From contig CAMPEQ010000007.1 in NCBI GenBank assembly GCA_946803585.1, positions 30,451 through 94,450 on the forward strand: a stretch of 64,000 bases of DNA, read 5' to 3'. This DNA is from an uncultured Actinomycetes bacterium (lineage in GTDB: Bacteria; Actinomycetota; Actinomycetes; S36-B12; UBA10799). Under the pieces are notes generated by a model. The model saw only the letters and a list, made by a program, of their open reading frames with translations. It was not told the DNA's origin and searched no databases. Positions 13,682 to 27,357 of the stretch are shown piece by piece (the stretch's first letter is position 1; every line of letters begins with the position of its first letter). The translations under genes were made by a program, and so were the position numbers.

Positions 13682-13755
<74 letters not shown>

Positions 13756-13771
13756 CAGGTGTTTTAGCAGG

Positions 13772-14014: not shown

Positions 14015-14605
14015 CTATGGCGAACCTGTGCGCGACCTGACGCCCGCGGGTGGGCTGCTCACCGGGCAACTGCAGCGATTGGCAGGACAAGCACAAGCCG
14101 TCGCCTTCACTAGTTTGAGCTGCGGCGTACCGAGACCGGCTGTTGAGTTTGGAAGCTCGGTCAACGCAGTGTCACACCAGCCGACCAGATTTGGGACATC
14201 GATAGAGTAGGGGGAGTCTGCGCTGTGTGGGGCGATGTTGGAACGAGCGCGCCGCAAAACTGCTTCTGCCCCCGCCGTATTGCCGCGCTTAGCGTGGGTG
14301 ATTGCAACCGCGATCTGTGCGAGTCCCTGCCAAAGGCTACGTTCTGTGGCTGGGGCCGACTTCCAGGCAAACTCGAGTACTTCGTGAGCTTGGAACGGGC
14401 GTCCATGACGCAGTAGGTCCTGCGCAAGGTCAAGAGCCTCTTCGGGTTGGAGGTCGATGACTTCAGGTAGAGGATCGACTCCGACTGCGTCTCGGGCAAG
14501 CGGTCGACCAAGTTCATCTCTTGGCCGGGAGCTGAGTGGACGTCCATTGACGTCTCTGTCACGGTCCACTCGGTAGCTCACTTTCGCTCCTAGTTGTCGC
14601 CCCAT
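14015..14605 (-). CDS. DUF309-domain protein
   Basis: The core FQAHEVLEFAWKSAP...WQGLAQIAVAITHAKRGNTAGA matches the DUF309 signature. The C-terminus is Cys-rich (CACPANRCSCP). Confidence 0.7.
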   Translation of the reverse strand: MGRQLGAKVSYRVDRDRDVNGRPLSSRPRDELGRPLARDAVGVDPLPEVIDLQPEEALDLAQDLLRHGRPFQAHEVLEFAWKSAPATERSLWQGLAQIAVAITHAKRGNTAGAEAVLRRARSNIAPHSADSPYSIDVPNLVGWCDTALTELPNSTAGLGTPQLKLVKATACACPANRCSCPVSSPPAGVRSRTGSP

Positions 14606-14805
14606 TTATTGGGCAGGAAGAGGCTGGCGACGCGATTAATCCATCTCAGGATATGTCAATCTCAGAGGTATCGCAGGTATCGCGCTCGGACGGCATCATC
14701 ACTTGCTGAACCTAATCCGGCGCCTTCCTGGTTGTTGCTGCAACATGCGCCATCCGGCCCTTCGTTGGTGATGACTGGCGGGCGCAAGCGCCCTGCGCGC
14801 TCGAG

Positions 14806-15552
14806 CTATCGATATTCGGGGTTGGGGTAGTCGAATCTGCAGCCTGCGTCCCACTCAGACCTCTGGTTACCGTGAGCGGGCAACCCACCAGAACTCTTGA
14901 GCAGGTTCGCCATATGCATGAGGTTCCAGGTCATGAACGTCGTGTTGCGGTTGGTGAAGTCGTTGTCTAGTCCGCCACCGGGGGAGTCCAGGTAGGACGG
15001 TCCGGGGCCCGCCTCGCCGATCCAACCGGCATCGGCCTGCGGCGGGATCGTGTAGCCGACGTGCTGGAGTGCGTACAGGATTCCCATGGCGCAGTGTTTG
15101 ATCCCGTCTTCGTTTCCGGTCACCAGGCATCCACCGACTTTGCCGTAGAAGGCGTATTGGCCTTCGGTGTTGAGGTTGCCCGATTCTCCGTAGAGGCGCT
15201 CGATCAGTTGGGTGGCGACACTGGACTTTTCTCCGAGCCAGATGGGGGTTCCGACGACCAGAATGTCGGCTTCCTTCACAACCTGGTACATCTGCGGCCA
15301 GTCATCGACGTCCCACCCGTGATCGGTCATGTCCGGGTAGACACCCGTAGCGATCTGGTGGTCAATAGCTCGGTATTCGCTGACCTCAACCCCGTTTGCT
15401 TTCATGATTGCGATTGAGCGATCCATCAGTGCCTGGGTATTCGATACCGACGGCGAACGCTTCAACGTGCAGTTGATGTACACCGCTGTCAAGTTCGAGT
15501 AGTCGCCGGGGAAAGTGCTGCAAAGCTGCTCATCGCGCTCAGAAACGCTCAT
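14806..15552 (-). CDS. Flavodoxin-like NAD(P)H-dependent FMN reductase family protein
   Basis: NCTLKRSPSVSNT...ADILVVGTPIWLGEKSS...GNEDG is typical of the flavodoxin-like fold reductases. ATG 15552 is preceded by GGAGG. The ORF-track start 15714 runs into the DUF427 gene. Confidence 0.8.
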   Translation of the reverse strand: MSVSERDEQLCSTFPGDYSNLTAVYINCTLKRSPSVSNTQALMDRSIAIMKANGVEVSEYRAIDHQIATGVYPDMTDHGWDVDDWPQMYQVVKEADILVVGTPIWLGEKSSVATQLIERLYGESGNLNTEGQYAFYGKVGGCLVTGNEDGIKHCAMGILYALQHVGYTIPPQADAGWIGEAGPGPSYLDSPGGGLDNDFTNRNTTFMTWNLMHMANLLKSSGGLPAHGNQRSEWDAGCRFDYPNPEYR

Positions 15553-15592
15553 TGAAACCTCCAAAATAGGGACTCTCTCCACGACTGGGTCG

Positions 15593-15883
15593 TCATGGCG
15601 ATTGGACGATCTGAATGACCGGTGAGAACGCAACGTGGTCACGAATGCCACGAATCCAGATCGGTGGGTGCGGGTAGAACCAGGCGACGTTCTTGACTTG
15701 TTCGCCGTCAACATTGAGGTGGTAGTAGGACGCGAGACCCTTCCAGTAACAGGGAGTGCGGAGGCGGGATGTTTCCAGCAGATTTTGATTCACCGCGTCA
15801 GGCGGGAAGTAGTGGTTGCCTTCCACAACACGGGTCGCGTCAGCCTCGGCGAGGACTGTGTCATTCCAGACTGCACGGATCAA
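15593..15883 (-). CDS. DUF427-domain protein
   Basis: 96 aa with VVEGNHYFPPDAV...RTPCYWKGLASYYHL...NVAWFYPHP (DUF427 pattern). TTG start with GGAGG 5 nt upstream. Confidence 0.8.
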   Translation of the reverse strand: MIRAVWNDTVLAEADATRVVEGNHYFPPDAVNQNLLETSRLRTPCYWKGLASYYHLNVDGEQVKNVAWFYPHPPIWIRGIRDHVAFSPVIQIVQSP

Positions 15884-15924
15884 GGCGCCTCCATATAGTG
15901 AATGTCAGGTCGGGCTGCTAGTTG

Positions 15925-15953
15925 CGAAACCCAGGTGGGGCGGCGTTCATTCC
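15925..15953 (-). promoter_or_regulatory. Candidate ECF-type promoter (tGGAAT-N18-GTTTCG) in front of the DUF427/FMN-reductase genes
   Basis: On the minus strand, GGAAT sits at 15953-15949 and overlaps the anti-sigma stop codon. An 18-nt spacer separates it from GTTTCG at 15930-15925, 41 nt upstream of the DUF427 TTG. The same motif occurs at three other sites nearby. Confidence 0.5.
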
Positions 15954-16234
15954 ATCTCTTGGGTGAGGTTTCGGCCGAAGTCGACGAGGTCGGCTACGGC
16001 TTGGGAATCTGCTGGTTCACTGAACTGCGTCGCCAGGCTTTCCTTGATTGCCCGGTATGTTTCGGCCTCTAATCCGCAGCGTTTACACGCCTCGAGGTGA
16101 CGCAGCACGCGGGTGTGGGTTTGTTCATCCGTTTGACCGTCTAGGACGGATTGCAGTAGTCGCGTTGCCTCCCGGCAGCTTGCGACATCTTTGTCACCGA
16201 CGAGGCGACGCCACATGGACAGTTGACTAGTCAT
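15947..16234 (-). CDS. Zinc-associated anti-sigma factor (ZAS, RsrA/RshA-like), cytoplasmic
   Basis: 95 aa with no TM segment. HxxxCxxC motif (RHLEACKRCG) plus an upstream Cys (VASCREA). 4-nt overlap with the sigma gene. Confidence 0.8.
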   Translation of the reverse strand: MTSQLSMWRRLVGDKDVASCREATRLLQSVLDGQTDEQTHTRVLRHLEACKRCGLEAETYRAIKESLATQFSEPADSQAVADLVDFGRNLTQEME

Positions 16235-16782
16235 GACGGGATCCCTTCATGGAGTGCGGTCCGTTTGGCCACCACGCGGTCACGAATCTTTCGCCGAGCC
16301 CGGTGAAGTCTGCTCATCACGGTTCCTTCCGGAATCCCTAGGTAGGCGGCAGCCTCGGCGTAGGACAACCCATCAATATCGACGAGGACTATGACCTGGC
16401 GAGAGTCCTCGGATACTTCGGATAAGGCGGCGGCTACGACGTCATCTAGCTCTGTACGCATCACATGGTCCTCGGCTGAGAGTCCTTCGTCGGCATGTCG
16501 TTCGCGGGTAGTGTTTTCGGTTAGGTCAATCGGTTCAGGGCGCCGACGGCGGTGATTGTTGTAGTTGGCGTTGCGCATGATGGTGAGCAGCCACGACCGT
16601 GGGTGTCTCCCATCGAAGGTGTCCAGCGAACGCCACGCACGCAACAGCGTGTCCTGAACAAGGTCGCTAGCGTCAGCCGGTTGCGCCGTTAACGACTGTG
16701 CCACCCGAAGGAGGACCGGGACTTCTGGCAATACATCCCGTTCGAAGACCGCTCGAGCGTCACGTCGTTGAGGTTGTCCCAC
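16231..16782 (-). CDS. ECF (sigma-70 family group 4) RNA polymerase sigma factor
   Basis: 183 aa. Region 2 has DASDLVQDTLLRAWRS. Region 4 has LSYAEAAAYLGIPEGTVMSRLHRARRKIR. GTG start. Confidence 0.9.
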   Translation of the reverse strand: MGQPQRRDARAVFERDVLPEVPVLLRVAQSLTAQPADASDLVQDTLLRAWRSLDTFDGRHPRSWLLTIMRNANYNNHRRRRPEPIDLTENTTRERHADEGLSAEDHVMRTELDDVVAAALSEVSEDSRQVIVLVDIDGLSYAEAAAYLGIPEGTVMSRLHRARRKIRDRVVAKRTALHEGIPS

Positions 16783-16787
16783 CTAGA

Positions 16788-16818
16788 GGAAACCCGGTAG
16801 CCATATGCCCGTATTCCC
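16788..16818 (-). promoter_or_regulatory. Candidate autoregulatory ECF promoter (GGGAAT-N19-GTTTCC) of the sigma gene, probably leaderless
   Basis: On the minus strand, GGGAAT is at 16818-16813 and GTTTCC at 16793-16788. The GTT core ends 8 nt before the GTG start at 16782. Confidence 0.55.
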
Positions 16819-16861
16819 AAACTGAGGATCCCATTTCCGAGGGAGAATTTCTTTCAGAGTT

Positions 16862-16892
16862 GGGAAGGTTCGGCGGCGTCCGGGGGGTTTCC
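16862..16892 (+). promoter_or_regulatory. Candidate ECF promoter (GGGAAG-N19-GTTTCC) for the Met-rich membrane protein / ccdA / tlpA unit
   Basis: On the plus strand, GGGAAG is at 16862-16867 and GTTTCC at 16887-16892, ~50 nt before ATG 16944. It mirrors the motif on the other strand. Confidence 0.55.
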
Positions 16893-16943
16893 AGCCCAGA
16901 ACGACATGACCACCCACGCCAACAAGAGGAGACACACGACAGC

Positions 16944-17411
16944 ATGGCAAACACAACAACAGTCGCACCCAAAACGACATCGACCACAACCGAGACAAGC
17001 ATCGGCCAAGCGGCTATCTACGGCGCGCTCGGCGGCATCGTTGGGGGCATGGTCTTCGGAATGATGATGAGCATGCTCGGCATGATCGAAACGATCGCGA
17101 TGCTCGTGGGCAGCGAAGCGCTCATCGTCGGGTGGGCAGCACATATGGCCATATCCGTCTTTATCGGCGCAACCTTTGGAGTGATTGCAAGGGCTCAGCT
17201 CACCAGTTGGGGAACAGGTATCGGGATTGGCGTTGCCTACGGCATGTTCTGGTGGGTGCTCGGGGCCCTCGTTCTGATGCCAGCAAGACTAGGTATGCCC
17301 GTTTTTCAATTCAACACGATGGCGTGGCAGAGCCTGATGGGGCATATGGTCTTTGGGCTCGTCATGGGTGCGGGCGCTGTAGCACTGGCCCGTCAATCCA
17401 GTAGGAACTAG
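16944..17411 (+). CDS. Methionine-rich small integral membrane protein (about 4 TM), function unknown
   Basis: ATG 16944 is preceded by AAGAGGAG. 155 aa with 16 Met by my count (GMVFGMMMSMLGMIETIAML...). The ORF-track start 16698 lies inside the sigma gene region. Confidence 0.7.
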   Translation: MANTTTVAPKTTSTTTETSIGQAAIYGALGGIVGGMVFGMMMSMLGMIETIAMLVGSEALIVGWAAHMAISVFIGATFGVIARAQLTSWGTGIGIGVAYGMFWWVLGALVLMPARLGMPVFQFNTMAWQSLMGHMVFGLVMGAGAVALARQSSRN

Positions 17412-17431
17412 CTCCTTGCGTCCTTGACCGA

Positions 17432-17483
17432 GAGCAGGTGTGTTGAACCGCTACCCGACGTAGTGGGTTCAACACACCTGCTC
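17432..17483. repeat. Perfect 18-bp inverted repeat (hairpin, 16-nt loop) between the membrane-protein gene and ccdA
   Basis: GAGCAGGTGTGTTGAACC (17432-17449) and GGTTCAACACACCTGCTC (17466-17483). There is no U-tract downstream. Confidence 0.8.
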
Positions 17484-17540
17484 GCTATGACGGTCCGGGA
17501 CCTACTGCTCTGTTACTCAACGTTGCCCGATGGGGAATCG

Positions 17541-18464
17541 ATGGAAATTGCTGTTCTCACAACTGCTCTGACTGCTGGGATGTTGGCCGCCTTCAATCCG
17601 TGCGGTTTCGCGCTACTGCCCGGTTACCTTGCACTATTTCTCAGCGATTCGACGAATCAACGTCCTGGTAGCGCGGTCCGCCGCAGCCTACGGGTGAGTG
17701 CATCCATGACTGCCGGGTTTATTGCCGTCTTCACATTCGTCGGGCTGCTGATCTCGGCGCTGTCTTGGCAGATCACCGCGTACACCCCCTACTTAACCTT
17801 GGCAGTCGGGCCAGTTCTCGTGGTGCTAGGAATGTACCTACTTTCTGGTCGCGATTTGAAGTTCGGGATTCCTCGGATGAAAGGACGCGTTGGGTCCTCG
17901 GCGGCCGGAATGTTCATGTATGGCATGACATACGCGATCGTTTCACTGTCGTGCACATTGCCGATCTTCCTCGTCGCTGTCGTCGGGGCCACGCGGACCT
18001 CGAGCTTCGCAGCCGGACTCTTCACCGTTGTGGTGTACGGCCTGGGCATGGGCCTGGTCATCACCGCGTTGACCTTCGCTGTCGCACTGGCTCGTGACGG
18101 CTTTGTCGCAGGTAGTCGAAGGATGGTCCGCTACGTTAACCGCATTTCCGGTGCCCTCCTCGTGCTGGCAGGTGCCTACCTCGCGTGGTACGGCTTCGCG
18201 GAAGTACAGGTCCTGCGTGGAGACTCCGAGGCAAGCTTGCCTGAGATTGGTGGCCAGATAGCGGCCACCTTCACATCGATAATCGACCAAGAGAACCTGT
18301 TCGTCGTTGTCGCGGGGGCGCTGACCATTATCGGTACCTGCGCAGTCGCCATCATTTTGATTAACCGTCGTAACAGCAAGCAATTACCTTCATCAAATCC
18401 AGACGATCTCGCACCAGAGACTGCGCTGGACGAATCACAAACCTCCCAGTTAGGACAGTCATGA
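17541..18464 (+). CDS. ccdA: Cytochrome c biogenesis protein CcdA / DsbD-family thiol-disulfide transporter
   Basis: Conserved membrane cysteines in AAFNPCGFALLPGYL and VSLSCTLPIF, with a multi-TM profile. I placed the start at ATG 17541, downstream of the hairpin. Confidence 0.85.
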   Translation: MEIAVLTTALTAGMLAAFNPCGFALLPGYLALFLSDSTNQRPGSAVRRSLRVSASMTAGFIAVFTFVGLLISALSWQITAYTPYLTLAVGPVLVVLGMYLLSGRDLKFGIPRMKGRVGSSAAGMFMYGMTYAIVSLSCTLPIFLVAVVGATRTSSFAAGLFTVVVYGLGMGLVITALTFAVALARDGFVAGSRRMVRYVNRISGALLVLAGAYLAWYGFAEVQVLRGDSEASLPEIGGQIAATFTSIIDQENLFVVVAGALTIIGTCAVAIILINRRNSKQLPSSNPDDLAPETALDESQTSQLGQS

Positions 18465-19042
18465 GAATCAGTGCGCGTCAACTTTCGATCACAGCGGCCC
18501 TCACACTTGCCGGAGTGGGACTTGCGGCGTGTGCAGGGGCTACCGATGCCCAGGTGTCGCCTCAGCCGCCGATCCCGACCGTGACCGCGCCCTCGCCGGT
18601 TGCCCCGGCAGCTCCGCAGTCCGCTGTGCCTGCTGCGCAAGCGATCTTGCCTGCTGTCACGGTTCGCGAGGTGAACAGCGGCAATTCTGTTGATCTTGCC
18701 TCGCTCACCGAGGCTGGGACTCCGACGCTGGTCTGGGCGTGGGCGCCTCACTGCCCGTACTGCAACGCCGAGGCACCCAAGTTGCAGAAGTTCGCGAGTG
18801 AAAACGTCGGCAAAATCAACGTTGTCGGTGTCGGAACACAGGATAGCTTTGGCCAGGCCGAAGACTTCGTAGCCAAACATGACCTGACCACGCCCACCAT
18901 GGTGTGGGACGAGAGCTTCGAGTCATGGACGACCATGGGGATTACTTCCATGCCGACGTGGATCCTGATAGGGGCAGACGGAGAACTCGTACTGCGTCAC
19001 TCTGGGCAGTTCCCGGAATCAGACATCGCTTCGCAAATCTAA
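18461..19042 (+). CDS. TlpA/ResA-like thioredoxin-fold lipoprotein (thiol-disulfide oxidoreductase)
   Basis: Lipobox LAGVGLAAC and CxxC active site WAPHCPYC. ATGA overlap with ccdA. Confidence 0.85.
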   Translation: MRISARQLSITAALTLAGVGLAACAGATDAQVSPQPPIPTVTAPSPVAPAAPQSAVPAAQAILPAVTVREVNSGNSVDLASLTEAGTPTLVWAWAPHCPYCNAEAPKLQKFASENVGKINVVGVGTQDSFGQAEDFVAKHDLTTPTMVWDESFESWTTMGITSMPTWILIGADGELVLRHSGQFPESDIASQI

Positions 19043-19098
19043 GCCTAGAACGAGACAGCAGGCATTGGTCGTGCAATCCAACCCAGGTCGCTGCGTGT

Positions 19099-19127
19099 GG
19101 AAGGAATCAGTCAGTCACCGGGTTTCC
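19099..19127 (+). promoter_or_regulatory. Candidate ECF promoter (tGGAAG-N18-GTTTCC) in front of the mycoredoxin gene
   Basis: GGAAG at 19099-19103, an 18-nt spacer, GTTTCC at 19122-19127, ~90 nt upstream of ATG 19219. Confidence 0.5.
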
Positions 19128-19218
19128 CTGGGGAATCGGAATCATATTCCGCCGCTACCCGCGGTATTGAAGACACGCTGCAGAACCTCAACTAGTCCAC
19201 GTCGGAAAGGCGCCACCA

Positions 19219-19473
19219 ATGAACCCTCAGCTCACTGTGTACTCAACGCGATGGTGCGGGTACTGCCTCCGTCTCAAATACCAACTAAAACGAGCGGGCA
19301 TTCCGTACACCGAGATCGACATTAACAAGGACCCTGCTGCTGCCGCCGCGGTTGAACGATTCAACGGAGGTAACCGAACTGTGCCGACGGTGGTTTTGGC
19401 TGATGGCACTGCCCTGACCAACCCGTCGCTGGCCGATCTCCAGCGAGCGCTTTCTTCCGACGCTCGTGGCTGA
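19219..19473 (+). CDS. Mycoredoxin / glutaredoxin-like protein
   Basis: 84 aa. The N-terminal TVYSTRWCGYCLRLK (CGYC) and the RTVPTVVL motif are typical of mycoredoxin-type glutaredoxins. Confidence 0.85.
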   Translation: MNPQLTVYSTRWCGYCLRLKYQLKRAGIPYTEIDINKDPAAAAAVERFNGGNRTVPTVVLADGTALTNPSLADLQRALSSDARG

Positions 19474-19500
19474 GGACATCCGAAATCGGACGGCTCGGTC

Positions 19501-20865
19501 GTGACAGATAGTCCAGATCTGCTGGTCATTGGCGGTGGCACGGCCGGGCTTTCCGCTGCACGAACTGCTCGACGGTTCGGGCGCTCGGTGGTGATGGTGA
19601 CGGACGGAGAACCGGGCGGAGATTGCACATTCACGGGCTGTGTTCCGTCGAAGACGTTGCTCGCTAGCGGGCGCCTGCCGTTTGCTGAGGCGATCAGCCG
19701 CGTGCACGCCACTGTTGACGAGATCGCCGCAACAGAGAACTCTGATGTGCTTCGGGCCGAAGGTATTGACGTAGTTGTTGGGCGTGCAGACGCGCGTGCG
19801 CGGGATTGCGTTGAGGTTGATGGTCGTGTGCTTACGCCAGAGTCGTTGGTCATCGCCACAGGTAGTGGTCCGGTAATACCGCCGATTCTCGGGATTCGCG
19901 ATGTCGCCTATCTGACGAACGAGAACCTGTTCGAGCTCACGGAACTACCTGAGCATCTGCTAGTCGTGGGTGGCGGAGCAATCGGGGTCGAAATGGCTCA
20001 GGCATTTATCCGCCTTGGCTCGCGAGTGACTATCCTTGAAGCCGGTGCCAGGCTGATTGGCAAGGAAGAGCCTGAAGCATCCGCTGTTGTTGGCGAGGTG
20101 CTGGGCCGTGACGGAGTTGACGTGTATCTGGACACCACCATCTCCGAAGTTGCCCGAACGGGGACGGTGATTACGGCCACGACTAGCAGAGGCGACATCC
20201 ACGCCAGCCACCTGCTTGTCGCCGCTGGACGTCAAGCCCGGGCCTGCGGGTGTGACGCTTTAGGGATAGTCCGCAGTGAGCGTGGTGCAATCAGGGTGGA
20301 CGCGCGGATGCGCACCAGTGTTGCTGGGGTGTACGCGGCCGGTGACGTGACTGGGCGCTTGGCGTTCACTCACGCCGCCGATGAGATGGGACGGGTGGCG
20401 GCCACTAACGCGCTACGTAAACTCCCGCTTCGATTCAAGGAACACGCTATTCCGTGGGTGACCTTCACCAGTCCAGAAGTGGCTCGTGTCGGTCTGACGG
20501 AAAGCCAAGCAGCTCAGCACACTCGCGGTGCCCGCGTCGTCGAACTTCCAATGGCAGACGTCGATCGCGCCCGAACGTCCGGACACACCGACGGGTTCAT
20601 CAAAATCATCGTCGGCCCACGAACGATCTTGCGTAACGCCGGTGGAGGCAGGGTGCTCGGAGCCACGATCGTCGCTGATCGAGCTGGCGAAATGATCGCC
20701 GAACTTGCCCTTGCTATCCGAACAACCATGTTCACCGGGAGACTGGCCCAATCGTCCCATGCCTATCCCACCTGGTCAGTCGGCGTGCAGCAAACTGTCG
20801 GCCAGATTTTTGGGGTTGGTGACCGTAAACCGCGGCCCGCCCGAAAGGAGTTCCACCGTGCCTGA
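19501..20865 (+). CDS. FAD-dependent pyridine nucleotide-disulfide oxidoreductase (glutathione/mycothione reductase-like)
   Basis: GGGTAG FAD motif, redox-active GGDCTFTGCVPSK, second Rossmann motif VVGGGAIGVEMAQ, and a C-terminal dimerisation domain with HAYPTWS. Confidence 0.9.
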   Translation: MTDSPDLLVIGGGTAGLSAARTARRFGRSVVMVTDGEPGGDCTFTGCVPSKTLLASGRLPFAEAISRVHATVDEIAATENSDVLRAEGIDVVVGRADARARDCVEVDGRVLTPESLVIATGSGPVIPPILGIRDVAYLTNENLFELTELPEHLLVVGGGAIGVEMAQAFIRLGSRVTILEAGARLIGKEEPEASAVVGEVLGRDGVDVYLDTTISEVARTGTVITATTSRGDIHASHLLVAAGRQARACGCDALGIVRSERGAIRVDARMRTSVAGVYAAGDVTGRLAFTHAADEMGRVAATNALRKLPLRFKEHAIPWVTFTSPEVARVGLTESQAAQHTRGARVVELPMADVDRARTSGHTDGFIKIIVGPRTILRNAGGGRVLGATIVADRAGEMIAELALAIRTTMFTGRLAQSSHAYPTWSVGVQQTVGQIFGVGDRKPRPARKEFHRA

Positions 20866-21736
20866 CCAGGTGACGCGCATTGTCGTCGATTCCGGCGCGC
20901 AAATGACGCCCGTGCTGCGCGAACGGTTCAAAGCAGAGGTGGTTCCGGTCGGTATCGTGGTCGACGGAGTGGCCTACAGCGAGGGCGAGGATATCGACCT
21001 CGCGAAGATCAGCGAAGTGCTCGCGCGAGGTGCCACGGTCAGCACCTCGACACCGAGCCCCGGAGACTTCCTCCGAGCATATGAGCGCTGCGCCCGAGAC
21101 GGGGCGACCCAGATCTTGTCGGTGCATACCGGCGGCACGCTGTCGTCCACGGCCAGTACCGCGCGGCTGGCTGCCGCCTCTGCTGAGATTCCAGTAGTCG
21201 TCGTTGATACCGGCACCGCCTCATTCCCGGTGACGATGAGCGCGTGGAGTGCTGCGGACGCATTGGCTGCCGGTGCCACTCTGAAACGGGCAATGACAAT
21301 CGCAATGGCTACTGCTGCGGCCATCGATAGCGTCTTCATTTTGGGTGCGCCTGAGCTTGCTGCCCGCGGGGGGCGTCTCATCGATCGCGATGCAATCGAA
21401 GGGACAGCGGTCGTCGCGTTCACTGACGGCGAGATGAAGGTCGTTGGTCATGTCAAAAGTCCCGAAGACGCGATCGCTGCCATGGCGGACTATGTTCAAG
21501 CGCGGAGCGACGGTGAGCTCCTACGAATCGGAGTGGGTCACATTGGTGCCTCCGAGTTGGCCGCCACCTTGGCCGACGTGCTGGAATCCCGGCAAAGGGT
21601 TGAGAACCTCGTTCACTACGACATCGGTCCTTCTATCGCAGTCCACACCGGACTAGGAACAGTCGGCTGCGTCTTTCACAAGAGCCAGCCCATTCAGGGC
21701 ACCTTCACGGTGCCGGTACGCGAGAATCTCCTCTAG
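20858..21736 (+). CDS. DegV-family fatty-acid-binding protein (FakB-like)
   Basis: IVVDSGAQM... with a DegV-like length and profile. GTG 20858 is preceded by AAAGGAG and overlaps the upstream stop by 8 nt. Confidence 0.8.
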   Translation: MPDQVTRIVVDSGAQMTPVLRERFKAEVVPVGIVVDGVAYSEGEDIDLAKISEVLARGATVSTSTPSPGDFLRAYERCARDGATQILSVHTGGTLSSTASTARLAAASAEIPVVVVDTGTASFPVTMSAWSAADALAAGATLKRAMTIAMATAAAIDSVFILGAPELAARGGRLIDRDAIEGTAVVAFTDGEMKVVGHVKSPEDAIAAMADYVQARSDGELLRIGVGHIGASELAATLADVLESRQRVENLVHYDIGPSIAVHTGLGTVGCVFHKSQPIQGTFTVPVRENLL

Positions 21737-26212: not shown

Positions 26213-27357
26213 CGAGACATCCCGGTCCGGGGGAGCGTCGCCTCTACTCGCCAGGCCTGCTCGGCGGTGGGTCCCGCGTAGAAGGTGCCACCGAGCAGTG
26301 AAGCCCGTTCCTGCATACCGACTAAGCCGTAGCCGATGCGATCGCGGCTGACACCGCCGGATGAGCCGTCGTTGTCGATGGTCACCCGTACCTCCTTGTC
26401 ATCACCAACAACGGTGACACTGACCTGGGTTGCTTGGCGAGCATGCCTTCGAGCATTGGTGATGGACTCTTGCGTGAGGCGGTAGATCGCGGCCTCGACG
26501 GCCGGGCTGAGATCGTCGAACTGGCCCACAACCTCGACCGTGACGCAGGGACGCGCTCGATCATCGGTTGCGAGTTGCTCGACCTCGGCCAGCCCAGGCT
26601 GCGGCGCAAGCGCGGCCTCCGGTGAAGTCCGGAGGACGCCGACGATCGCGCGCAGCTCGTTGAGGGTGCGAGTCGCGGCCTCCTCGATGACAGCGAAGGC
26701 CGCGTCGGCGCGCTCCGGGTGGGTTACCGCAACAGCTCGTCCTGCTTGGGCCTGGATGGCAATACCTGATACGTGATGGGCGACGGTGTCATGGAGTTCG
26801 CGCGCAAGCTGTTCGCGTTCGCGGGCCTTGGCCTGGTCAATATCGCGGATGCGCACCCTCGTTCCGTAGCGGACCGCGGCGCCGAGCGTGGCGGCGAATA
26901 GGAAGAACGCGTACCCAGCGACGGTTTCTGCCACAGTCATTGGGTCGGCGAGATATGTGACGCCGAGCCACAGCAAGATAATTCCGAGGCCGCAGACGGC
27001 CTCTCGACCTGAGCCCCAACGGAATAGAGCGTAGGCCAGGATTAGCGTCGCAGAAATGCTGGAGAGCAGCTGGCCCTGCGATTCGGTGAGAATCCTGACG
27101 ATATCGATGATCGTCAGGATTCCGAACGCGACGACAACCGCGAGAAGTGGATGAGTTCGGCGCCACAGCAACGGGACGAGCACGGCGAGGACCATGAGCA
27201 ATAGCAGCGGGCGCGGTGCAAGGTCATGGCGAAAGGCCGCCTCACCAAGAGACCAACAAGTCAGTACTGCAACCAAAACCCAGTCTCGTGGACCAAGTCT
27301 TGGGGGATTCGCCGGTCGAGGTTCGCCCCAGAGCGATTGAAGTGTGTTGGCGGCCAC
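26209..27357 (-). CDS. Sensor histidine kinase (HisKA_3 type) with polytopic N-terminal domain
   Basis: H-box LARELHDTVAHHVSGI and a C-terminal HATPase_c (DNDG...GYGLVGMQERA). GTG start. 4-nt overlap with the regulator gene. Confidence 0.9.
   Translation of the reverse strand: MAANTLQSLWGEPRPANPPRLGPRDWVLVAVLTCWSLGEAAFRHDLAPRPLLLLMVLAVLVPLLWRRTHPLLAVVVAFGILTIIDIVRILTESQGQLLSSISATLILAYALFRWGSGREAVCGLGIILLWLGVTYLADPMTVAETVAGYAFFLFAATLGAAVRYGTRVRIRDIDQAKAREREQLARELHDTVAHHVSGIAIQAQAGRAVAVTHPERADAAFAVIEEAATRTLNELRAIVGVLRTSPEAALAPQPGLAEVEQLATDDRARPCVTVEVVGQFDDLSPAVEAAIYRLTQESITNARRHARQATQVSVTVVGDDKEVRVTIDNDGSSGGVSRDRIGYGLVGMQERASLLGGTFYAGPTAEQAWRVEATLPRTGMSR

Follow-up and report, generated by a model that had tools for sequence, protein, structure and literature searches.

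The closest described counterparts of the locus analysed here are the SigR-RsrA pair of Streptomyces coelicolor and the SigH-RshA pairs of Mycobacterium and Corynebacterium (ECF12-type, responding to thiol/disulfide stress). In these systems, as in ours, the sigma gene is followed by the gene of a small, soluble CHCC anti-sigma factor, the promoter core reads GGAAT-N18-19-GTT, the sigma gene stands under a promoter of its own type, and the targets belong to thiol-redox metabolism, including mycoredoxin, flavin and disulfide reductases and thioredoxin-fold proteins. Autoregulation by ECF sigma factors, ZAS anti-sigma factors and leaderless mRNAs are all well known in Actinomycetota. A tie between an ECF sigma factor and CcdA-TlpA-type thiol-disulfide exchange in the envelope, as we find here, is known from the SigK-RskA regulon of M. 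tuberculosis (DipZ, Mpt53, Mpt70/83); RskA, however, is a membrane anti-sigma factor that lacks a ZAS motif, and SigK recognises an unrelated promoter motif.

The published consensus of SigR promoters is GGAAT-N18-19-GTT (PMC9205884), while promoters of C. glutamicum SigH follow GGAAt-N18-19-GTT, where position -31 accepts any base (PMC10012870), and have a -10 element reported as t/cGTTgaa. C. glutamicum SigE, whose recognition overlaps that of SigH, uses GGAAC-N17-18-cGTT and requires the C at -31 (PMC10012870). Among the anti-sigma factors, the CHCC residues of RsrA are C11, H37, C41 and C44; proteins of this type have their fourth ligand 23-26 residues N-terminal to the His and need the N-terminal Cys for redox sensing, while HHCC-type proteins have no oxidation response (PMC4960319).

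In the 64-kb stretch of uncultured actinobacterial DNA that we analysed (the window), an ECF sigma gene on the minus strand and the gene of a Met-rich membrane protein on the plus strand are separated by 161 bp (16783-16943). For this gap, an earlier note had proposed a divergent pair of identical ECF-type promoter motifs, an autoregulated leaderless sigma mRNA and, together with two further copies of the motif, a compact regulon of four transcription units. Re-reading the sequence reproduced every coordinate given for the two motifs, as well as their strands, the N19 spacers, the size of the gap and the GTT that ends 8 nt before the GTG start. In all likelihood, the two motifs are genuine promoters recognised by the adjacently encoded sigma factor, and we assign a probability of about 0.8 to the reading that both back-to-back promoters are served by this ECF sigma factor of the minus-strand side and belong to a redox circuit of four units. 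The uncultured stretch would thereby become a readable circuit of one sigma factor, one redox-type anti-sigma factor and four transcription units (Table 1).

Table 1. Probable promoters, genes and proposed transcription units of the locus, in window coordinates.
Feature	Position	Strand	Description
Transcription unit C	14806-15883	minus	DUF427 + FMN reductase-like
NAD(P)H-dependent FMN reductase-like protein	14806 to about 15564	minus	Pfam FMN_red
DUF427 protein	15593-15883	minus	Pfam NTP_transf_9
Promoter C	15925-15953	minus	-35 GGAAT 15953-15949, 18-nt spacer to GTT; upstream of DUF427 gene
Promoter C, extended -10 element	15932-15925	minus	GGGTTTCG
Anti-sigma gene	15947-16234	minus	95 aa; Pfam zf-HC2; overlaps sigma stop codon
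ECF sigma gene	16231-16782	minus	183 aa, GTG start; Pfam Sigma70_r2, Sigma70_r4_2
Promoter A	16788-16818	minus	-35 GGGAAT 16818-16813, N19, GTTTCC 16793-16788; predicted to drive sigma gene
Promoter A, extended -10 element	16795-16788	minus	GGGTTTCC
Promoter B	16862-16892	plus	divergent from A; -35 GGGAAG 16862-16867, N19, GTTTCC 16887-16892
Promoter B, extended -10 element	16885-16892	plus	GGGTTTCC
Transcription unit B	16944-19042	plus	three genes under promoter B (predicted)
Met-rich membrane protein	16944-17411	plus	155 aa; no significant family match; weakly DUF1440-like
CcdA/DsbD-type thiol-disulfide transporter	17541-18464	plus	start uncertain; Pfam/NCBIfam
TlpA/ResA-like secreted thioredoxin	18461-19042	plus	Pfam/NCBIfam
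Promoter D	19099-19127	plus	-35 GGAAG 19099-19103, 18-nt spacer to GTT; upstream of mycoredoxin gene
Promoter D, extended -10 element	19120-19127	plus	GGGTTTCC
Transcription unit D	19219-20865	plus	mycoredoxin + disulfide oxidoreductase
Mycoredoxin	19219-19473	plus	TIGR02200 95.8 bits, cut-off 89.5
Pyridine-nucleotide disulfide oxidoreductase	19501-20865	plus	MerA/RclA/mycothione-reductase superfamily; Pyr_redox_2, Pyr_redox_dim

Promoters A and B are identical in their -10 block and spacing and differ at the last base of the -35 element (T in A, G in B), so that the claimed identity of the pair holds for the former and not for the latter. The two further copies lie at 15953-15926 on the minus strand (promoter C) and at 19099-19127 on the plus strand (promoter D). 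GGGTTTC is present in all four sites; the -35 element is GGAAT at A and C and GGAAG at B and D, and the spacer is N19 at A and B and N18 at C and D. All four thus carry the sequence features of SigR/SigH-class promoters, GGAA(T/n), a spacer of 18-19 and GTT, whereas, set against SigE-CseE of C. glutamicum and SigE-RseA of M. tuberculosis, they have T or G at -31 and not C.

At promoter A, 5 nt separate GTTTCC from the GTG at 16782. The letters directly 5' of this codon read CTCTAG, whose TAG is in frame and rules out a longer sigma protein, and the 8 nt between GTT and GTG contain no purine-rich stretch and leave no room for a ribosome-binding site. As the T of GGAAT corresponds to -31 in mapped C. 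glutamicum SigH promoters (PMC10012870), counting through N19, GTT and the 8 nt places the predicted +1 on G16782 of the GTG or on an adjacent base, which would yield a leaderless mRNA. For promoter B, the predicted +1 is A16898 or G16899, with a leader of ~45 nt and a ribosome-binding site, GAGGAG (16927-16932), ahead of the ATG at 16944, and for promoter D it is predicted near 19133-19134. A scan of positions 14500-21000 with the sigma-70 consensus found no promoter, and as the sole Rfam match was a tRNA, the leaders hold no known RNA element. Just past promoter D, where the predicted mycoredoxin leader begins, GGAATC stands twice in tandem and GGAAT-CAT-ATTCC forms a small palindrome (19132-19150), with no matching GTT at promoter distance downstream.

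The sigma factor has the composition of an ECF (group 4) protein, with sigma regions 2 and 4 only (Sigma70_r2, E = 3e-18; Sigma70_r4_2, E = 1e-17) and a length of 183 aa, within the range of about 180-200 aa expected for the group, and scores 105 bits against the general sigma70-ECF model TIGR02937 (cut-off 42.9). Its best match among solved structures is M. tuberculosis SigH (E = 4e-24), to which HMMER aligns it over residues 8-170 with 88.7 bits (∼35-38% identity by eye); SigE is weaker in the same search (E = 4e-17). Against the equivalog model SigH_actino (TIGR02947), it reaches 105.5 bits and thereby fails the cut-off of 251.55. On these scores, it is a member of an uncharacterised paralogous family and not a SigR/SigH orthologue, plausibly a non-SigR subgroup of ECF12 (Staron 2009; Casas-Pastor 2021). 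The main text of the ECF classification paper (PMC7826278) describes no group with this gene context, the literature on DUF427 in connection with sigma factors and on SigH/SigR paralogues yielded nothing on this sigma family, and the window encodes no further paralogue of the sigma factor.

The anti-sigma factor encoded directly downstream is likewise SigR/RsrA-like without being orthologous. It consists of a single domain without a TM segment, and carries the signature C-x25-H-x3-C-x2-C (C20, H46, C50, C53) in which C20 precedes H46 by 26 residues, in agreement with the definition of CHCC-type ZAS proteins, HxxxCxxC with a Cys 23-26 residues N-terminal to the His (PMC4960319). These four candidate zinc-ligand residues, which place the protein in the RsrA type, are invariant in 74 of 74 anti-sigma homologues (median length, 98 aa), in support of the ZAS partner that had been proposed for the sigma factor. 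With 28.3 bits against a cut-off of 62.5, it fails the RsrA equivalog model (TIGR03988), and among solved structures it has no match at E < 0.4. The class assignment of the earlier note, SigR/SigH, therefore stands for the motif, whose four sites fit the consensus, and for the mechanism, but not for orthology, as both proteins fall short of the respective cut-offs (105 vs. 251 bits and 28 vs. 62.5). Given that the Cys lies 26 residues before the His, as in the RsrA arrangement, and given the gene content of the locus, oxidation of thiols is the best inference for the signal to which the anti-sigma factor would respond.

To place the locus in its evolutionary context, we collected 80 loci (L001-L080) from a scan of one genome per species, with sigma homologues 47-61% identical to that of the window and from Acidimicrobiia, Streptomyces, Mycobacteriales, Nocardioides, Pseudonocardia and Nitriliruptoria, among others. 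Five metagenomic contigs (L081-L085), with homologues 69-86% identical, were added for a total of 85 loci; the nearest relatives are metagenomic. Immediately ahead of the sigma gene, 57 of the 85 loci carry a motif of the form GGAAN-N17-20-GTT. In 47 of those 57, the first in-frame start codon follows GTT after 8 nt (33 cases) or 9 nt (14 cases), the 8 nt of the window being the modal value. The close starts (n = 55) are GTG in 42 cases and ATG in 12, and a recognisable motif upstream of the sigma gene is absent in about a third of the homologous loci. The 769 kb spanned by the 85 loci contain 134 copies of the strict motif, compared to about 10 in dinucleotide-shuffled sequence. The conservation of the motif and of its distance to the start codon argues for the autoregulated leaderless sigma mRNA that had been proposed for the window, and supports, from the geometry of the sites, a leaderless and autoregulated mRNA as a conserved design of the sigma family. 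Predicted to be strictly leaderless across the family, the sigma mRNA would set it apart from SigR/SigH.

Twenty-six of the 85 loci have another site, divergent and no more than 300 nt away from the sigma gene. The divergent architecture of the window recurs in Georgenia sp. AZ-5 (L052); other cultured carriers of the sigma family are Pseudonocardia hydrocarbonoxydans NBRC 14498 (L042), Nocardioides rubriscoriae DSM 23986 (L075), Rhodococcus marinonascens NBRC 14363 (L058) and Streptomyces acidicola K1PN6 (L039). In seven distant loci (L007, L011, L019, L021, L052, L055 and L063), the divergent gene also starts 8-9 nt after GTT, and leaderless target genes besides the sigma gene itself seem, from such spacings, to be common in the regulon.

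When the regions upstream of the sigma gene are aligned between the window and L081-L085, only the four promoter blocks and the GTG are conserved. Near-identical counterparts of promoter B stand in L081, L082 and L083, and the likeness extends to the downstream AGCCCAGAAC, within which the predicted +1 falls, while in L084 the divergent neighbour is an unrelated gene and the second promoter has decayed. The arrangement of promoter C after the anti-sigma gene recurs in L081 (6829) and L082 (972), and orthologues of promoter D, GGAAGGAA...GGGTTyCC, precede the oxidoreductase gene of L081 (2691) and that of L083 (9749). Two smaller features accompany these sites. The last codon and the stop of the anti-sigma gene (GAA TGA, 15947-15953) share bases with the -35 GGAAT of promoter C, an overlap kept in the closest relatives (L081, 6829-6835; L082, 972-978). 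The membrane-protein/DUF427 promoter has its -10 element immediately followed by a conserved AGyCCAGnAC (16893-16902 in the window), which contains the predicted start A16898/G16899 and is found again in L081 (5891-5882), L083 (3985-3976 and 6935-6944) and L084 (2438-2429); this sequence may reflect a preference in the initiation region or serve as another regulatory site.

In close relatives in which the locus is rearranged, the motif precedes the same gene families as in the window, namely DUF427, the 155-aa membrane protein with ccdA and tlpA, the disulfide oxidoreductase and mycoredoxin, in line with the compact regulon of four units put forward in the earlier note. The trio of membrane protein, ccdA and tlpA adjoins the sigma gene in L081, L083 and L084. 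Across the 85 loci, the genes that follow sites other than that of the sigma gene encode the oxidoreductase (9), DUF427 (8-9) and DUF3179 proteins (5), followed by AhpD-like CMD (3) and peroxiredoxin/redoxin (2) proteins, and also include ccdA, tlpA and mycoredoxin. In 37 of the 85 loci, no more than 5 kb separates the oxidoreductase gene from the sigma gene, and L084 and L085 have it in the sigma/anti-sigma operon itself.

The sites are further characterised by what surrounds GTT. In an unbiased count, for which GGAAN, GTT and a start codon following at 7-10 nt were the sole requirements, the base preceding GTT is G in 88% (-1) and the one before that G in 80% (-2), while the first base after GTT is C or T in 82% (+1) and the second C in 90% (+2). 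The resulting extended -10 element, cGGGTTyCC, is on these frequencies specific to the sigma family and differs from the GTTg/GTTgaa of SigR/SigH. It bears directly on the strongest rival to our reading, in which the sites are genuine ECF promoters read mainly or also by a canonical SigH/SigR encoded outside the window, and the locus belongs as a sub-branch to the general thiol-stress regulon instead of forming a regulon of its own. The core of the motif cannot be told apart from the SigR/SigH consensus GGAAT-N18-19-GTT (PMC9205884, PMC10012870), related ECF sigma factors overlap in recognition, as C. glutamicum SigH and SigE, which share promoters (PMC10012870), and mycoredoxin, flavin reductase and disulfide reductase are typical targets of thiol-stress regulons; with nearly the same core and G tolerated at -31 (PMC10012870), a canonical SigH/SigR could read some or all of the sites. 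However, the motif accompanies the sigma family's own gene in the 57 loci described above, mostly at the 8-9 nt spacing, and the GG before and yCC after GTT, as opposed to the t/cGTTgaa of C. glutamicum SigH, suggest a separate specificity. In addition, Streptomyces genomes (L011, L021, L035 and L039) carry the sigma family besides SigR, and the two have therefore been maintained as distinct systems. We consider this rival improbable, though the most serious of those weighed.

Much less probable still is a reading of the motif not as a promoter but as an operator to which a dimeric regulator would bind. GGAA...TTCC forms a loose inverted repeat, as the outer four bases of the two blocks are mutually reverse-complementary (the reverse complement of GTTTCC being GGAAAC), but the half-sites lie ∼24 bp apart from centre to centre and are asymmetric (GGAAT vs. 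GGGTTyCC), their orientation toward the downstream gene and the 8-9 nt to the start codon are constant, and no regulator gene co-occurs with them except the sigma/anti-sigma pair.

That the matches arose by chance in GC-rich intergenic DNA has a negligible probability, for although the -10 heptamer GGGTTTC by itself is not enriched in the window (10 matches vs. 7.2 expected), the bipartite GGAAK-N16-17-GGGTTTC occurs 4 times vs. 0.02 expected, the four sites come out on top with a weight matrix trained independently of them, and their orthologues are conserved where the surrounding DNA is not. All four matches to the bipartite pattern are intergenic and each faces its downstream gene; the stricter GGAAK-N19-GTTTCC has 2 matches in the window vs. 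0.08 expected. The matrix was trained on L001-L080 only, that is, on unrelated genomes with the sites of the window left out, and yields scores of 24.6 bits for A, 21.6 for D, 19.4 for C and 18.3 for B, followed by 12.9 bits for the fifth-ranked site of the window; the maxima of 10 random windows are 12.8-18.1 bits. Site B barely exceeds the upper of these values, and is backed mainly by orthologous conservation.

Weaker candidates elsewhere in the window were rejected. A match at 26901 on the plus strand lies within a minus-strand ORF, and neither it nor a palindromic pair at 160/187 has the GG before GTT or scores above 12.6 bits. An origin of the four sites from a repeat element was likewise dismissed, since only the GGAA and GGGTTTC blocks are common to them and their spacers are unrelated, so that they are not copies of such an element.

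We return to the reading in which the local sigma factor serves all four units. In the resting state, the sigma factor would be held by its small, soluble, zinc-binding CHCC anti-sigma factor, and thiol/disulfide stress or a related oxidant would oxidise the cysteines of the latter and free the sigma factor, which would then guide RNA polymerase to GGAA(T/G)-N18-19-GTT promoters with the extended -10 element cGGGTTyCC. Transcription from promoter A, starting at or within 1-2 nt of the GTG, would give a leaderless sigma/anti-sigma mRNA and positive feedback, a transcript that would first amplify the response and later reset it. Promoter B would express the membrane protein-ccdA-tlpA unit, exporting reducing power to the cell envelope, promoter C the DUF427 protein and FMN reductase, and promoter D the mycoredoxin and the disulfide oxidoreductase. 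The flavin and disulfide reductases, with mycoredoxin, would act in the cytoplasm, and the DUF427 protein and the membrane protein would be further products of the response. From the sequence we infer that it is the local sigma factor, and not a paralogue, that reads the sites, as well as the exact starts and the redox signal.

The circuit, though well supported, is an ordinary case of known bacterial control and involves no new mechanism. What also differs from SigR/SigH is the regulon that can be seen, which is small and local and comprises CcdA/TlpA, DUF427, a DUF1440-like protein and a MerA/RclA-like oxidoreductase, while theirs includes trxBA, mycothiol synthesis and proteases. The DUF427 protein, the DUF1440-like Met-rich membrane protein and the MerA/RclA-like oxidoreductase would thereby gain a regulatory context. 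Tentatively, and with rather more doubt than confidence, one might go further and see in the locus a representative of an uncharacterised ECF/CHCC-ZAS module that is spread across Actinomycetota in parallel to SigR/SigH, insulated from it by cGGGTTyCC, amplifying itself through an obligatorily leaderless mRNA, and charged with a task of its own, the supply of reducing power to the envelope by CcdA-TlpA and the detoxification of a specific oxidant by the MerA/RclA-like oxidoreductase, DUF427 and the DUF1440-like membrane protein.

Several minor observations concern individual genes. In L085 (239-991, minus strand), DUF427 is fused to the 155-aa Met-rich membrane protein, a fusion that, at the level of sequence, links two genes of unknown function of the putative regulon; the fusion and the membrane protein of the window both have weak matches to DUF1440 below the cut-off (E = 0.004-0.006). 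Outside the circuit, the window contains a confirmed tRNA-Pro (ggg) at 13682-13756, and ARAGORN calls a second tRNA-Pro (cgg) at 14461-14532 on the plus strand that Rfam does not confirm at gathering score. As this call overlaps the 5' part of a DUF309 ORF on the opposite strand, either the tRNA call or the start of the ORF is wrong.

The promoter model GGAAt-N18-19-cGGGTTyCC, with a start codon 8-9 nt after GTT, is usable in many Actinomycetota, where it can predict regulon members and correct over-extended sigma gene calls. Examples of the latter are the database entries P0002, P0004-P0008, P0018 and P0117 and the calls at L083 4047 and L084 5031, which extend too far upstream; in their surplus N-terminal residues, 'MEC...PGF-QxV', the -35 (ATGGAATGC) and -10 (CCGGGTTTC) elements have been translated, and their true start is probably the GTG 8-9 nt after GTT. 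Streptomyces sp. CC53 carries two copies of the sigma family, and in four Streptomyces second copies (L035, L036, L060 and L062), GGGGGGTCC replaces GGGTTCC upstream of the sigma gene, which may reflect a diverged -10 element or a loss of autoregulation.
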